4,898 nt of DNA from a virus. Taxonomy: Duplodnaviria; Heunggongvirae; Uroviricota; Caudoviricetes. The notes beneath the pieces are model-generated. The model made no database searches and had not been told where the DNA came from. It saw only the letters and a list, made by a program, of their open reading frames with translations. The stretch is from IMG/VR virus record IMGVR_UViG_2534681628_000018, one strand, 5' to 3'. Each line of letters opens with the position of its first letter. The stretch's first letter is position 1. Shown one piece after another: positions 2-4,898 of the stretch. Made by a program: the position numbers and the translations under genes.

Positions 2-169
2 CGCGATGTACGCACAATCGTTGAGCTGGGAAAAACAATCGACTTTGATGCCAGAATCGTTATTCCATTTGAAGGCGTGCGCCACAATGCGCTGGATGAT
101 GCCCGTCACCAGGCAAAATACGTTTCAGCAATCTGGCAAAAACTGATCCCGAATCCGGTTGATTTTTAA
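2..169 (+). CDS. C-terminal fragment of a DnaQ-like (DEDDh) 3'-5' exonuclease; 5' end lies outside the window
   Basis: Frame is open from the window edge to TAA at 167-169 and translates to RDVRTIVELGKTIDFDARIVIPFEGVRHNALDDARHQAKYVSAIWQKLIPNPVDF. The segment H-N-A-L-D-D-A...Y fits the Exo III motif (H-x-A-x-x-D-A) of DnaQ/RNase T/ExoX-type exonucleases. Not in the ORF track because it contains no start codon. Only 55 residues are visible. Confidence 0.45.
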   Translation, partial: RDVRTIVELGKTIDFDARIVIPFEGVRHNALDDARHQAKYVSAIWQKLIPNPVDF

Positions 170-235: not shown

Positions 236-487
236 ATGTACGAATTAACTCTATCGCCAGCAGAGATTCAAGAGATCACGAAATACGAGCGATACACAAA
301 ACAGCAACACCAGTTAAGGCTGCACGGTATCCCATTTGTAATCGGTCCTAAAAACGAACCAATAGTTCTTCGCAGGGATATTCCACACGGACTGACTACG
401 ATGCCAAAAGCACCTGAACTGGTTTCCGCTGAACCCGATTTTGAGGCGCTGAACAATGGGAAGACCAAGAAAAAACAAAAAAGATAA
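236..487 (+). CDS. xis: Excisionase (lambda Xis-like recombination directionality factor), 83 aa
   Basis: Small ORF immediately upstream of and overlapping int. The N-terminus MYELTL resembles lambda Xis (MYLTLQEW...), and the basic C-terminal tail NNGKTKKKQKR resembles lambda's ...RNGKKAKS. ATG at 236 is the only start in this frame after the upstream stop at 167-169; AAGG lies about 12 nt upstream. Confidence 0.65.
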   Translation: MYELTLSPAEIQEITKYERYTKQQHQLRLHGIPFVIGPKNEPIVLRRDIPHGLTTMPKAPELVSAEPDFEALNNGKTKKKQKR

Positions 488-1475
488 TGCACTACCACCG
501 CGTGTTAGATCGAATGGTTACAGTTACGTATGGAAACCCGAAGGAAGCACAAGAACTATAGGGCTCGGAAGAGTGCGGGAAACCAGCATAGCTAAAGTCT
601 GGCAAAATTATGAGCTGGAAAAAGCAAAACTCCACAACATAATGACAGTAGCTAAATTATGGCACATGTTTATGGACTCCCCTGCATTTACAGAACTGGC
701 CCCCCGAACCCAAAAAGATTATCGGCAACATCAAAGGGCATTGTTGGCAGTATTCGGAAAAGTGCTTGCTGATAATGTAAAAATTGAACAGGTAAGAATT
801 TTCATGGATAAGCGAGGACTTGAGAGCAAGACCCAGGCAAACCATGAACTGGCAAGTCTGAGCCGTATATACGGATGGGGATACGAGCGTGGGTATGTAA
901 AAAATAATCCATGCAAAGGAGTCAGAAAATTCACACTTAAAGCCCGTACTGTTTACATCACCGATGAACAGTATGCTGCAATATATGCGGAAGCAATTCC
1001 ACAGTTATGTATTGCAATGGAGATATCCTATCTTTGTGCGGCAAGGCTCGGTGATGTACTCGAGCTGAAATGGCAGGATATTATGGATAAAGGGATTTAC
1101 ATTGAGCAAAACAAGACTGGCACTAAACAAATCAAGGAATGGTCTCCGCGATTACGTACGGCGATCCAGTTAGCCCGAAATGTATCTTCCGGCACATGCG
1201 AGTATGTGATCAACACAACCAAAGGCGAGAAGGTAATAGCCAAGACGCTGAACAACTGGTGGAATCAGGCTAAACGTGCAGCCGAGCAAAAAGCCGGCGT
1301 TCCGTTTGGATGCAACTTCCATGACATAAAAGCCAAAGGGATTTCAGATTACGAAGGCAGCAGTCGCGACAAACAAATTTTCAGTGGACACAAAACAGAA
1401 AATCAGGTGTTGATTTACGATCGTAAAACCAAAATCACCCCAACACTGGATTTGCCGCTTGTGGTCAGTAAGTAG
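456..1475 (+). CDS. int: Site-specific tyrosine recombinase, lambda Int family, 339 aa
   Basis: N-terminus MGRPRKNKKDNALPPRVRSNGYSYVWKPEG...GLGRVRE parallels the lambda/HK022 Int arm-binding domain (MGRRRSHERRDLPPNLYIRNNGYY...GLGRDRR). Catalytic-domain landmarks align by eye: AARLGDVLELKWQDI (Arg I), IEQNKTGTK (Lys), FHDIK (box II His), GHK (His), VLIYDRK (Tyr nucleophile). First in-frame ATG after the stop at 450-452; TAG stop at 1473-1475. Confidence 0.92.
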   Translation: MGRPRKNKKDNALPPRVRSNGYSYVWKPEGSTRTIGLGRVRETSIAKVWQNYELEKAKLHNIMTVAKLWHMFMDSPAFTELAPRTQKDYRQHQRALLAVFGKVLADNVKIEQVRIFMDKRGLESKTQANHELASLSRIYGWGYERGYVKNNPCKGVRKFTLKARTVYITDEQYAAIYAEAIPQLCIAMEISYLCAARLGDVLELKWQDIMDKGIYIEQNKTGTKQIKEWSPRLRTAIQLARNVSSGTCEYVINTTKGEKVIAKTLNNWWNQAKRAAEQKAGVPFGCNFHDIKAKGISDYEGSSRDKQIFSGHKTENQVLIYDRKTKITPTLDLPLVVSK

Positions 1476-1480
1476 GCAAT

Positions 1481-1496
1481 CCAGAAAATTTTCTGG
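1481..1496. other. Perfect 16-bp palindrome CCAGAAAATTTTCTGG, 5 nt downstream of the int stop
   Basis: Read directly from the sequence; self-complementary. No T-run follows on either strand, so more likely a protein-binding site or RNA stem than an intrinsic terminator. Confidence 0.3.
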
Positions 1497-1503
1497 CAAA
1501 AAG

Positions 1504-1513
1504 ACTTGGTATA
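1504..1513 (+). repeat. Candidate integrase arm-type site ACTTGGTATA (int-proximal arm)
   Basis: The same 10-mer recurs at 1733-1742 on the other side of the att core, and TTGGTATATT (1506-1515) recurs at 1747-1756. A degenerate copy CTTGGTGTT lies at 1549-1557. Confidence 0.4.
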
Positions 1514-1616
1514 TTAACTCTGAATAGCTCCCTAATATCTTGATTTTTCTTGGTGTTAGGTCTGATTAACTTTTCAGCTATTTTGCGTATTGCACTGATT
1601 TTTCTTTATTTTTCTT

Positions 1617-1676
1617 CGGTCTTGAAAACCGGCGACCCGAAAGGGTTCCAGAGTTCGAATCTCTGCGCTTCCGCCA
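1617..1676 (+). other. att core: 3'-terminal 60 nt of a tRNA-Ser(UGA) gene (serT-type), from the anticodon stem through the CCA end; not a complete tRNA
   Basis: CGGTCTTGAAAACCGGCGACCCGAAAGGGTTCCAGAGTTCGAATCTCTGCGCTTCCGCCA matches the 3' part of E. coli tRNA-Ser(UGA) as I recall it: anticodon loop CUUGAAA, long variable arm, T-arm CAGAG/TTCGAAT/CTCTG, acceptor 3' strand CGCTTCC, discriminator G, CCA. The required 5' acceptor strand GGAAGCG and D-arm are absent from the ~30 nt upstream (1587-1616 is AT-rich and unrelated). Confidence 0.85.
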
Positions 1677-1684
1677 AATAATCA

Positions 1685-1718
1685 AGGGGTTACAAAATGG
1701 TAGCCCCTTTGCTTTTTT
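1685..1718 (+). terminator. Rho-independent terminator directly downstream of the tRNA-Ser fragment; possibly bidirectional
   Basis: Stem AGGGGTTAC (1685-1693) pairs with GTAGCCCCT (1700-1708), 9 bp with one G-U pair, loop AAAATG, followed by TTGCTTTTTT (1709-1718). On the minus strand the same hairpin is followed by a weaker U-rich stretch (TGATTATTTGG), so it could also end the tfa/stf transcript. Confidence 0.6.
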
Positions 1719-1722
1719 GGCT

Positions 1723-1756
1723 CTTGGTATAAACTTGGTATACCAATTGGTATATT
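1723..1756 (+). repeat. Cluster of candidate integrase arm-type sites: three direct TTGGTATA copies at ~11-12 bp spacing plus an embedded 12-bp palindrome
   Basis: CTTGGTATA at 1723-1731 and 1734-1742, ATTGGTATA at 1746-1754; perfect palindrome TACCAATTGGTA at 1741-1752. Helical-repeat spacing and placement 47-80 bp from the core resemble the P'1-P'3 arrangement of lambda attP. Confidence 0.45.
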
Positions 1757-1817
1757 TTCAGTCTTTAATATCTGCGATATTTTTCCCGCGAGCACCTCTT
1801 TTGATGTCTTTGTGGCC

Positions 1818-2402
1818 TCAAGGTTTTTCTGAGCTAACGACCAGTTTCCTGATTGAACCCAAATCCTCCAGATTATTCAGTTCTTCCTTCATCTCCCGCT
1901 GACGTCGATAAATCTCGTCATTGCGATCGAGCTGCGCCTGCGCCATTGCTGCCGCCAGTTCTTCCAGTTCCGGCATTGACAGTTTCACCTGTTGATTATC
2001 GGCATCACCCCATGCAAGGGCGGTTCGTGCCGTATCGGATTTCGCCGCCATTACTACCGGATAAAGACGGGCCATTGAGTCGGGGCCAGCGTTCCAGGTG
2101 CGACCGTTCCATTCAAAGGTGAACGGCAGTGCTTCCTGTTCTGTGCGCCATGCCTCGATTTCCTGCTTTTTGGCATCCTTCGCCGCGGCGATAAGTTCCG
2201 GCGTGACAGTGAAAGGGGCGATTTCGCCCCATTTGCCGTTCTGCAACTCTTCCCAGATGCGCTGGCCTGTCGGTGCGGTATCATCCTGCATGGCGGTATA
2301 CGGGACGAATTCCGTTTCACCTTCAAATAACACCTCGCAGTCAACCGCACCATTTTCAAGATAATGGGCGTTTCTGATGCCCTTTACCGCTCTGATTTTC
2401 AT
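1818..2402 (-). CDS. tfa: Tail fibre assembly / tail fibre chaperone-like protein, 194 aa
   Basis: Begins 13 nt downstream of the stf stop on the same strand, with GGGGAA about 8 nt upstream of its ATG (minus-strand reading TAA-CGGGGAATAAAAC-ATG). Same length as lambda Tfa (194 aa) and shares a central W-N-G-x-x-W segment (FTFEWNGRTWNAG vs lambda EYQKWNGTAWVKD). The C-terminal half is not obviously lambda-Tfa-like, so the assignment rests mainly on synteny. Confidence 0.6.
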   Translation of the reverse strand: MKIRAVKGIRNAHYLENGAVDCEVLFEGETEFVPYTAMQDDTAPTGQRIWEELQNGKWGEIAPFTVTPELIAAAKDAKKQEIEAWRTEQEALPFTFEWNGRTWNAGPDSMARLYPVVMAAKSDTARTALAWGDADNQQVKLSMPELEELAAAMAQAQLDRNDEIYRRQREMKEELNNLEDLGSIRKLVVSSEKP

Positions 2403-2415
2403 GTTTTATTCCCCG

Positions 2416-4898
2416 TTACTCGATGCGCACAAACAGGCAGATACGACCGGTTATTCCTTTAGAGTCCCTGACCCCGGATAGCGCCATATAACGCCCCGGG
2501 AAAGTGTACCCTGTAGCTCCTGCACTCGGTGCGGAATTGTAGGAGCCAACCCCAGCAGAAGATATTAAGCACGAAAGATTAACTCCGCCCAGTTGTGACC
2601 CCTGCACCACATCACCCAGGCCAATATTGATTTCTTTATCCCCGGAAGTTGTTCCGCGATAAACAGCCAGCACTGGAACACCCACTGCCGGGTATTTGAA
2701 ATATGAGCCTGAGCCTGCTGTCCGGGACAGTAAGAACGCCAGCGAATCGCCGTCGTAAATAATGGGGCTTACTGTTGCATTCCAGTTGTTTCCACTCCAG
2801 CGGTAAGTCAGGCGATGAATACTGTGCTCACCTTCGTAATACTGGTTAAAACACAGCAGCGTTTTGAATTTACGCACTGTGTCTGACTCGTCGTTATCAA
2901 AGGGTGACCACATCACATCAATGATGCCGTTAAATTTCGTTGTGCCAGCCAGCAGCATGGAAGAGTCCGCAATACTGACCGCATAACGCCCCGGGGCGGC
3001 CTTTTTCAGCCATTCAACAAAATCGGCCTGCCCGTTAAATGTCAGAGCGTCGGCACTGGTGAATGCCTGACCGAATCCATGCATGCCGGACAGTGCCAGT
3101 CTGCCCGGTGTGCGGTCGCGGATATCGCTCTGGGGTTCCATCGTCGCAGCCGCTTTCAGTTCAAGCTCCGTGCGCATGGCTTCAGGCGTGTTTCGTGCCA
3201 GTAATGAGCGAGCCTTGTTGCTGCATGGAATTGCTTTTGCTTTAAAGTTATCACCAAAATAAAGGAGAGAGTTTTGTCCCACCCCTGCCTTGCTGATACT
3301 GGTTAACGTATCGTTAAGCGGCTGTTTACCTGCCAGTGCATTAGTGACGGTTGTCGCAAAGTTCGGGTCATTGCCCAGTGCCGCTGCCAGCTCGTTCAGC
3401 GTGTCCAGGGCTTCCGGTGATGAGCCAACCAGTGCGGCGAGCAGTTTGCGCACAAACGCCGCATTGGCTATTTCAGTGCCTGCTGCATCATCCTGTGGTG
3501 TTGGCGTGGACGGCGTTCCGGTCAGTGCCGGGCTGTTCAGTGGCGCTCGGGTTTCAATCAGTGCCCGGAGTGAAGCCTCGTTGACTTTCAGGTTTTCCCA
3601 GCCAACCAGATAACCACCTCCGGTAGTCCAGTAGCGATTGTAATAAATATGACCGTTAATACCGTAAAAAATAATGATTTTGGCCACATATGCCGTATCA
3701 TGGCTGATTTGAGGTTCCGGCCAGATAATTTCAACGGTACCCTTGAACAGCACGCCCTGTATTACCGCATTTGTATCTGCATAAACGGCATAGCGTCCGG
3801 GATTTGCCGTTTTTACCCAGCGGAGAAAATCGGCCTCTGTTTTAAACTCGGTCCTGTCGCCGATGAAAAATACTTTCCCGAATCCAAACATGCCGGGAAT
3901 CGCCAGACGGCCTTCGGTGCGGTCGTAAATATTCTCCTGCGCATCCTTCTGTGCTGCATTGCCAAGTTGTGGCGTCAGATTCGTCCAGGTGACCGGGGCG
4001 GAGATATTATCGCCACGAACGGTCATAAGAATCCGTCCGTCTTTTCCAAAAAACAGAACCAGCTTTGTTGCTGTCTGGCTGGTTTTGTCGGCCCGGCCAT
4101 TATCCAGCCAGATAATTTCTGTTATCCCGGTTGTTTCTTCCGTTCGTGTGGCAAAGGTGTAATAGCGTCCCGGGTGCAGGTTGTGAGCGGTTCTGGCTAC
4201 AGTCGCCATATCGCTGGCAATAATTGAACGCGCTCCGGCGTCCGTCATTCCGTAACCATACGCACCGGGAAGCGCAATGCGGCCTTTCGTGCTGTCGTGA
4301 ATGTCTGTCTGAATATCCATTACCGCTGCGCTTTTCAGCTCAAGCTCATTGCGCATAGCTTCCACTGTGGCCTGTGCCAGCAGTGACCGGGCTTTTTCTG
4401 ACAGTGGAGACAGTGAAGCATTTCCGTCCTGATTAAAGCACAGAAGATTATCTGCCCGTTCTTCCAGATTACTGATTGCGGTTAACACGTCACTGAGTGG
4501 CTGTTTACCTGCCAGTGCTTTGGTGACTGTCGTCGCAAAATTCGGGTCATTTCCCAGCGCCGCTGCCAGCTCGTTCAGCGTGTCCAGGGCTTCCGGTGAC
4601 GAGTCAACCAGTGCAGCGAGCAGTTTGCGGACAAATGCCGCGTTCGCTGTTTCCAGACCGGCAGCATCGTCCGGTGGGGTTGGTGTGGTGGGCGTGCCGG
4701 TGAATGCCGGGCTGTCCAGCGGCGCTTTTGTTTTCGTCTCGTCCATGACGGTTTTGACGGCCTTCGGTGTGGCTGCCAGTTCTTCGCTGTCGTTGTCCGT
4801 ATCACTACAGAGTTGCACCAGGCCTTTTTCTGTCGTGGAAGCACTGCTTCCCTTCAGGTCATCAACTATCCGTTGCGCCTCGTCCCTGTGCTGTTTTG
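2416..4898 (-). CDS. stf: Side tail fibre protein (lambda Stf-like), C-terminal ~827 codons; N-terminus lies beyond the window edge
   Basis: The ORF track starts it at a GTG (4818), but the frame carries no stop in the codons from 4896 down to 4819 (...KQHRDEAQRIVDDLKGSSASTTEKGLVQLCSDTDNDSEELAATPKAVK). This continues the match to the conserved lambda Stf segment (...RKGIVQLSSATNSTSETLAATPKAVKVVMDETNRKAPLDSPALTGTP...NTLNELAAALGNDPDFATTMTNALAGKQP). TAA stop at 2416-2418. Confidence 0.9.
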   Translation of the reverse strand, partial: KQHRDEAQRIVDDLKGSSASTTEKGLVQLCSDTDNDSEELAATPKAVKTVMDETKTKAPLDSPAFTGTPTTPTPPDDAAGLETANAAFVRKLLAALVDSSPEALDTLNELAAALGNDPNFATTVTKALAGKQPLSDVLTAISNLEERADNLLCFNQDGNASLSPLSEKARSLLAQATVEAMRNELELKSAAVMDIQTDIHDSTKGRIALPGAYGYGMTDAGARSIIASDMATVARTAHNLHPGRYYTFATRTEETTGITEIIWLDNGRADKTSQTATKLVLFFGKDGRILMTVRGDNISAPVTWTNLTPQLGNAAQKDAQENIYDRTEGRLAIPGMFGFGKVFFIGDRTEFKTEADFLRWVKTANPGRYAVYADTNAVIQGVLFKGTVEIIWPEPQISHDTAYVAKIIIFYGINGHIYYNRYWTTGGGYLVGWENLKVNEASLRALIETRAPLNSPALTGTPSTPTPQDDAAGTEIANAAFVRKLLAALVGSSPEALDTLNELAAALGNDPNFATTVTNALAGKQPLNDTLTSISKAGVGQNSLLYFGDNFKAKAIPCSNKARSLLARNTPEAMRTELELKAAATMEPQSDIRDRTPGRLALSGMHGFGQAFTSADALTFNGQADFVEWLKKAAPGRYAVSIADSSMLLAGTTKFNGIIDVMWSPFDNDESDTVRKFKTLLCFNQYYEGEHSIHRLTYRWSGNNWNATVSPIIYDGDSLAFLLSRTAGSGSYFKYPAVGVPVLAVYRGTTSGDKEINIGLGDVVQGSQLGGVNLSCLISSAGVGSYNSAPSAGATGYTFPGRYMALSGVRDSKGITGRICLFVRIE
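3302..3547. repeat. Intragenic direct repeat, copy A (~246 bp), encoding the second copy of the conserved Stf collar segment
   Basis: Aligns without gaps to 4481-4726 at roughly 80-85% identity by hand count, including a 41-bp perfect match (3380-3420 = 4559-4599, GCCGCTGCCAGCTCGTTCAGCGTGTCCAGGGCTTCCGGTGA). Confidence 0.85.
4481..4726. repeat. Intragenic direct repeat, copy B (~246 bp), encoding the first copy of the conserved Stf collar segment
   Basis: See copy A. The copies lie 1,179 bp apart, an exact multiple of three, so they are in the same reading frame and orientation. Confidence 0.85.

Follow-up and report, generated by a model that had tools for sequence, protein, structure and literature searches.

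The window (the whole stretch of 4,898 nt that was analysed) carries the following genes.

2-169, plus strand: end of an exonuclease gene
236-487, plus strand: xis-like DUF4224 gene, 83 aa (ORF; Pfam DUF4224 E=1.8e-9; PHROG excisionase phrog_1266 E=6.5e-23)
456-1475, plus strand: int, lambda-type tyrosine integrase, 339 aa, with a putative N-terminal arm-binding domain
1476-1817: int-tfa gap, 342 bp
1818-2402, minus strand: DUF4376 tail-fibre assembly gene (tfa)
2416-4818, minus strand: tail-fibre gene, 800 aa

The gene order in lambda is stf-tfa-att-int-xis-exo, and the window has the same order, reversed. The end of the DUF4224 ORF overlaps the start of int by 32 nt (456-487), and a DUF4224 gene also lies upstream of int in relatives, an arrangement that is conserved across the Int family. 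Its product is presumed to be the recombination directionality factor. With regard to Sp4, a prophage discussed below, the accessible text of Asadulghani et al. (PMC2669165) has the Xis protein as probably non-functional because known DNA-binding motifs are missing. We note that the DUF4224 gene is kept beside int family-wide, despite that verdict. The tail-fibre gene has a 265-nt direct repeat (3290-3554 and 4469-4733, 83% identity, 1179 nt apart); a fibre module has been duplicated within the gene.

The int-tfa gap and serT

A block of 65 bp in the gap (1617-1681, plus strand) is identical in alignment to serT of E. coli K-12, starting with base pair 4 of the anticodon stem and ending 5 nt after the CCA (CCA at 1674-1676), and this core block is matched in all 5426 complete E. 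coli genomes. ARAGORN and Rfam runs on the gap gave no tRNA and one chance Rfam match to a snoRNA, the tRNA being missed because the gap holds only its 3' part. Two features are associated with the block.

1616-1632, plus strand: anticodon stem-loop, loop CTTGAAA at 1621-1627
1684-1719, plus strand: phage-borne terminator-like hairpin and T-run (10-bp stem 1684-1709, then TGCTTTTTTG)

A homologous hairpin is found in K-12 and in every serT-type relative, and after integration the phage hairpin takes over from the serT terminator.

In E. coli O157 Sakai, Sp4 lies directly 3' of serT and carries the 1682-1758 arm, and in other strains the other prophage end is found, reading from int through the 1476-1616 arm and the core to yccA. 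In phage Evi the attP is uninterrupted, with 98.3% identity to the window over 1400-1758. The serT identity, the Sp4/serT junction, the junction at the yccA end and the contiguous arrangement in Evi together show that the gap is an attP, with serT as attB. Circular Sp4 was detected after mitomycin C and its attP sequenced by Asadulghani et al. (PMC2669165), with a core attachment sequence described in the accessible text.

Strand exchange is expected in the anticodon stem-loop within the serT-identical block, at about 1616-1632. The anticodon stem (tCGGT / ACCGG) around the 7-nt loop CTTGAAA would make a plausible pair of core sites flanking the overlap, and this fits a natural junction seen after 1622, the 5' edge of the anticodon loop.

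That junction comes from a natural recombinant in which the int-side arm is joined right after CGGTCT (1622) to a truncated DUF1737 gene, of the late region of another lambdoid prophage (L066 3500-3792 and L180 2882-3153, the latter from E. coli O103 RM8385). The junction query was matched at a coverage of at least 80% in about 755 E. coli records, and the junction looks like att-core recombination with a secondary site. We also observed contiguous attP copies, with both arms and the core, inside 79 complete E. coli chromosomes (L002 5001-5282; L171 195-480); these probably reflect prophages lying in tandem or side by side at serT.

Repeats and IHF-like sites on the two arms

The 8-mer TTGGTATA has 5 exact occurrences in the window against 0.07 expected, all of them in 1506-1754, and a count of 5 was reached in none of 200 shuffles, with no shuffle exceeding 2. 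The copies and the IHF-like sites are listed here with offsets counted from the centre of the anticodon loop (1624).

1504-1513, plus strand: P1-like candidate arm-type site, ACTTGGTATA, direct, centre -114 (TTGGTATA at 1506-1513)
1533-1545, minus strand: predicted IHF site, H1-like, AATCAAGATATTA, perfect consensus, centre -85
1588-1600, minus strand: predicted IHF-like site, H2-like, AATCAGTGCAATA, one mismatch (AT for TT), centre -30
1680-1692, plus strand: candidate IHF site, H'-like, AATCAAGGGGTTA, perfect consensus, centre +62, overlapping the terminator stem
1722-1731, plus strand: P'1-like candidate arm-type site, TCTTGGTATA, +104 (TTGGTATA at 1724-1731)
1733-1742, plus strand: P'2-like candidate arm-type site, ACTTGGTATA, +115 (TTGGTATA at 1735-1742)
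1745-1754, plus strand: P'3-like candidate arm-type site, AATTGGTATA, +127 (TTGGTATA at 1747-1754)
1739-1754: perfect palindrome of 16 bp, TATACCAATTGGTATA, which yields an inverted fifth TTGGTATA copy at 1739-1746 (+119)

The initial annotation of this DNA had proposed a copy at 1504-1513 on the int side and three direct copies 11-12 bp apart on the tfa side. The int-side copy is an exact ACTTGGTATA, and the tfa-side copies are present as listed, with start-to-start spacings of 11 and 12 bp. It had also proposed a degenerate copy at 1549-1557 (plus strand, CTTGGTGTT), which we rejected as an arm site. The sequence is present, but against a matrix of 14 good sites it scores 1.5 bits, a score reached by 70% of shuffled arms, and 4 of its 9 columns vary among 18 arm variants, the same as background. 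No family counterpart at -71 was found among seven related phage attPs. When two mismatches are allowed the motif is found 8 times against 9.9 expected from shuffles, with no enrichment, and a scan of the int-side arm with motif and matrix showed no inverted copy in 1514-1616.

In the case of the palindrome, the 12 bp first reported (1741-1752) are indeed perfectly palindromic, but the true length is 16 bp. Both the palindrome and the inverted copy at +119 arise because the last two copies are spaced by 12 and not 13 bp and have a CCA spacer. The palindrome is lineage-specific, being exact or with one change across variants of the lineage and imperfect in L171/L172 (TATACTAATTGGTATA), and it is not present in relatives from other genera, where the spacer is TTCA or TTCG; it does not stand as a conserved feature. 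One could suppose that what functions here is the palindrome itself, as an operator to which a dimeric regulator binds, and that the direct repeats are incidental, as its perfection over 16 bp and near-constancy within the lineage would allow. We consider this very improbable, as the relatives in other genera that do not have the palindrome keep three direct copies (11 + 13 bp), it is broken in L171/L172, and a palindrome leaves the copy at 1504-1513 and the family-wide geometry unexplained.

Conservation within the lineage was assessed on 18 distinct variants of the int-side arm from E. coli and E. albertii, over 141 columns, of which 67 vary (48%). At the P1-like site TGGTATA is invariant and CTTGGTATA varies only at its second base, which is T or C. 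Taking the specified positions of the P1-, H1- and H2-like sites together, 1 of 25 varies, compared with 66 of the remaining 116 (Fisher p=3.6e-7, an optimistic value given the relatedness of the 18 arm variants and the post hoc choice of H2). The most variable stretch of the arm is 1565-1587, the -50 region. The T-to-C form of the motif, CCTGGTATA, was seen at P1 in three variants (L050 at 3549, L053 at 3550, and L178), and L050 has a second CCTGGTATA at 3767, a lone remnant downstream of attR beside a hybrid host/phage terminator.

The tfa-side arm is present in 776 of the 5426 complete E. coli genomes (~14%), and in most of these (>690) similarity stops at 1758-1759, about 4 bp past the third copy. 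This module boundary is independent of the next gene, which may be tfa, an espV fragment or a YkgJ-like gene. The gap is AT-rich and intergenic and the motif contains TATA-like hexamers, and one might regard the copies as chance or neutral remnants of local duplications, or as transcription signals for tfa or cargo. That is extremely improbable given the shuffling result, the invariance of the copies where their flanks vary and their conservation across genera; the copies also stay with int and att when the adjoining gene changes, and a promoter scan of 1400-1900 gave no promoter-like site.

Scanning the whole window with the strict IHF consensus WATCAANNNNTTR gave 2 matches where 0.28 were expected, and both fall within the att gap; a count of 2 was reached in 5 of 200 shuffles. 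One is the minus-strand match at 1533-1545 that had been reported earlier, and which is borne out by its substitution pattern, with none of the 8 specified bases and 4 of the 5 N/R positions varying among the 18 variants, and by a counterpart in phage BUCT708. The perfect plus-strand match at 1680-1692 and the one-mismatch match at 1588-1600 had been overlooked. The latter, H2-like site has a similar pattern (0 of 8 specified bases and 3 of 5 N/R positions vary), to be read with its mismatch and post hoc choice in mind. It shares the minus-strand stretch AAGAAAAATCA with the H1-like site and overlaps a direct repeat, TGATTTTTCTT (1541-1551 and 1596-1606). In BUCT708 the IHF consensus is matched perfectly at -85 and at -30, and the strand is that of the H1- and H2-like sites of the window.

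The H'-like site is uncertain. L090-L092 have the match, and it is missing from L096, BUCT708, Chris1, KpF5 and ST64B. The host has AAGATAAGGGGTTAG at this position, without an IHF match, and the perfect consensus is found in the phage arm only because the phage differs from the host in the serT 3' flank. In that flank the phage copy (1680-1692) reads AATAATCAAGGGG and the host AATAAGATAAGGGG (L003 660-680).

The integrase family and its attachment sites

Int is homologous to lambda Int over its full length. It matches the lambda Int structures 1Z1B, 1P7D and 1AE9 with E=4e-18 to 1e-11, and the alignment with 1Z1B (E=4.2e-18) is colinear from residue 1 (1-319 aligned to 1-340). The catalytic domain PF00589 is found at E=6.5e-8 with 33 bits, above the cut-off of 27.1 bits. 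When residues 1-70 are used alone, the best PDB match is the lambda Int N-domain (1KJK/2WCC, E=0.0067), and a profile of the N-terminus from 26 family members matches the lambda N-domain with an hhalign probability of 81.8% (E=1.1e-5). PF09003 is the top Pfam match for the N-terminus, but at 15.5 bits against a curated cut-off of 22 bits, and single-sequence AlphaFold2 gave no usable model of Int (pLDDT 35.8). The full-length alignment, the 1KJK match and the hhalign result agree with the initial annotation in predicting a lambda-like N-terminal arm-binding domain, that is, a separate domain homologous to lambda Int residues 1-64.

The motif is conserved in the attP regions of related integrases. 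A TTGGTATA triple with spacing of 11 + 13 bp lies 3' of tRNA-Ser in six other genera, namely Buttiauxella, Dryocola, Citrobacter, Pluralibacter, Sodalis and Symbiopectobacterium, where Int is 57-67% identical, and Chris1 (Int 59% identical) has the same triple at the same spacing. More distant relatives keep the triple, and the arm geometry with it, but with a different motif, which may be CTTGGAATA, CTTAGAATA, TGAGAAAAT, GTTAGCGTA or TTTCCTAAT. The IMG/VR loci mostly end 3 nt past int and about 13 are informative. Two of the IMG/VR loci with Int 76-77% identical, L079 and L080, have no tRNA or motif cluster in their sequence past int, and these probably carry cargo between int and att.

The geometry was compared in seven complete phage attPs (Chris1, KpF5, ST64B, mEp390, ZF40, BUCT708 and Fostie), in tRNA orientation and counting from the anticodon-loop centre. 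Five of them (Chris1, KpF5, ST64B, mEp390 and ZF40) carry a direct copy at -112 to -114, and all seven have an inverted copy at -48 to -50. On the 3' side of the tRNA the serine-tRNA types (n=4) have a direct triple at +105, +115/116 and +128/129, and in the leucine-tRNA types (n=3) the direct copies number two to four and span +132 to +163. The direct copies in the window are at -114, +104, +115 and +127. The inverted copy at -50, which is the position of P2 in lambda, is present in the seven related phage attPs and missing in the lineage of the window.

With regard to the tRNA target, serT cores are paired with CTTGGTATA or CTTAGAATA arms, and serU cores with CTTGGTATA, CTTGGAATA or TGAGAAAAT; BUCT708 has a serT core as in the window and an Int that is 54% identical. 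The motif tracks integrase lineage, not tRNA target. Where the N-domains of a pair are at least 60% identical the motif similarity is 96-99%, and in other pairs it is 59-67%. Covariation was considered as an argument for the N-domain specifically and then dropped, as the correlation of motif similarity with catalytic-domain identity is just as strong (rho 0.62, against 0.56 for N-domain identity), so that covariation fails to single out the N-domain.

This has a bearing on the suggestion that the repeats are bound by some other recombination protein, either the DUF4224 protein (236-487) or a host factor. The DUF4224 gene accompanies int in relatives and could co-vary with the motif just as Int does, and covariation is unable to tell Int apart through its N-domain. 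We nevertheless judge another binding protein improbable, as the motif is on both arms at positions like those of lambda P1, P2 and P'1-3, the triple is spaced at about one helical turn, and the lambda-like arm-binding N-terminus of Int needs a target. In lambda itself the Xis sites are restricted to the P arm, beside P2 (PMC4880445).

There is a difference in orientation between the window and its relatives, seen on comparing window 1476-1758 with L084-L088, L090-L168 and L181-L183. Some 30 relatives have the triple next after int and then the tRNA in antisense, whereas in the window the P1 arm comes after int, with a sense tRNA fragment and then the triple beyond it. The att cassette is accordingly turned round with respect to int in the lineage of the window.

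Comparison with lambda and proposed roles of the sites

Our main reading, to which we give a probability of about 85%, is that 1476-1758 is the attP of a lambdoid prophage of the Sp4/CP-933M/Evi type, with serT (tRNA-Ser UGA) as its target, and that the four direct copies are arm-type sites for Int. The initial annotation had put the repeats forward as candidate arm-type sites, and the lambda-like positions, the invariance within the lineage and the sites in relatives lend that comparative support; the TTGGTATA repeats are very probably the Int arm sites for insertion into E. coli serT.

The lambda paradigm has five arm sites together with H1, H2 and H' (PMC4880445). By analogy, the N-terminal domain of Int (456-1475) would bind 1504-1513, as the counterpart of P1, and the copies in 1722-1754, as counterparts of P'1-P'3. 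IHF bends at 1533-1545 (H1) and 1588-1600 (H2) would route the int-side arm back to the core, and a possible IHF bend at 1680-1692 (H', +62) could make a U-turn that sets +115 to +127 over the core. Arm-bound Int protomers would in this way reach the core sites, giving an assembled integrative complex, and strand exchange by the catalytic domains would take place in the anticodon stem-loop within the serT-identical block.

The likeness to lambda extends beyond the homology of Int, N-terminus included. On one arm a distal direct site is separated from the core by two predicted IHF sites, on the other three direct sites follow each other in tandem at intervals of about one helical turn, and the arm motif is unrelated to the core. 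Judged on sequence, the window has what is expected of a lambda-type attP in its repeated motif on both arms and in its IHF matches between arm and core. The full five-site arm set with an inverted P2-type site was not found in it; a P2-type site belongs to the lambda layout, and not to the heterobivalent-integrase kind as a whole.

There are also clear differences. The arm motif of the window is (A/C/T)(C/T/A)TTGGTATA and that of lambda is C/AAGTCACTAT, in keeping with the earlier claim that the recognition sequence is unlike lambda's. The core is in a tRNA anticodon stem-loop and not, as in lambda, between gal and bio. The P' sites of lambda are nearer to the core than the P'-like triple of the window, which is at +104 to +127 with the tRNA 3' half and the terminator between it and the core. 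The int gene of lambda abuts the P' arm, and in the window int adjoins the P1 arm. The window is without an inverted P2-like site, and its putative excisionase is a DUF4224 protein.

In lambda P2 is an excision-specific arm site, and integration uses P1, P'1-P'3, H1 and H2. The Sp4/CP-933M/Evi lineage could be running a rewired intasome, with the att cassette inverted relative to int and xis and the P2-like site lost, in which either the inverted copy in the P' cluster substitutes or excision is P2-independent and inefficient. We think this rather unlikely. The integration sites P1, P'1-P'3, H1 and H2 may all have been kept, by analogy with lambda, and the inverted copy at 1739-1746 might be the substitute for the lost P2-like site. 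Inefficient P2-independent excision would fit the accessible text of PMC2669165, in which circular Sp4 was reported only after treatment with mitomycin C.

Among known prophages, Sakai Sp4, EDL933 CP-933M and Evi have the same int-att module as the window. They diverge beyond 1758, where Sp4 and Evi have espV and espF-like effector genes and the window has tfa. The phages ST64B, KpF5, Chris1, BUCT708, mEp390, ZF40 and Fostie (Int 42-59% identical) share the Int family and the attP geometry, and in Chris1 the arm motif is identical to the TTGGTATA of the window. In those seven phages int adjoins the triple, the tRNA is antisense to int and the inverted copy at -48 to -50 is present, whereas the window is reversed and without the -50 copy; motifs (CTTAGAATA, TGAGAAAAT, TTCGCCAT and more) and targets (serU, leuZ-type) also differ within this set.

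A literature search for arm-type sites of the serT, Sp4, CP-933M or ST64B attP found no published description in the literature covered, and in the sole treatment of the Sp4 attP that we found (PMC2669165) arm-type and IHF sites go unmentioned in the accessible text, as they do in a paper on ST64B. The arm sites of the window are an uncharacterised but ordinary member of a well-known class of sites, and our analysis does not overturn current understanding. It would set the bounds of a functional attP at roughly 1500-1758, about 255 bp, in a type of prophage present in ~14% of complete E. coli genomes. The carriers include O157, O111, O121 and O103 strains, in which type III effector cargo (espV, espF-like) lies directly beside the att site.

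Integrases of the family also form a natural series in which the attP geometry is common to all and the arm motif changes by single bases (CTTGGTATA, CTTGGAATA and CTTAGAATA). The N-terminal strands differ in step with the motif, YSYVWKP in some and YSYYYKP in others. Such a series could reveal how arm-site specificity is read and could yield orthogonal integration tools, and the P2-less variant could inform how excision directionality is set.

In the Xenorhabdus, Photorhabdus and Providencia group the triple has the motif TTCACTAT, which resembles the lambda arm consensus. Triples of ATAGTGA(A/C) lie just 3' of int in relatives from Xenorhabdus, Photorhabdus, Providencia and Arsenophonus (L127, L133, L142-L147, L152, L154, L157, L159, L162 and L168), with an Int about 45% identical to that of the window. 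In those checked by ARAGORN it is tRNA-Leu(UAA) that adjoins int, and the reverse complement of ATAGTGA(A/C) resembles the lambda arm-site consensus.
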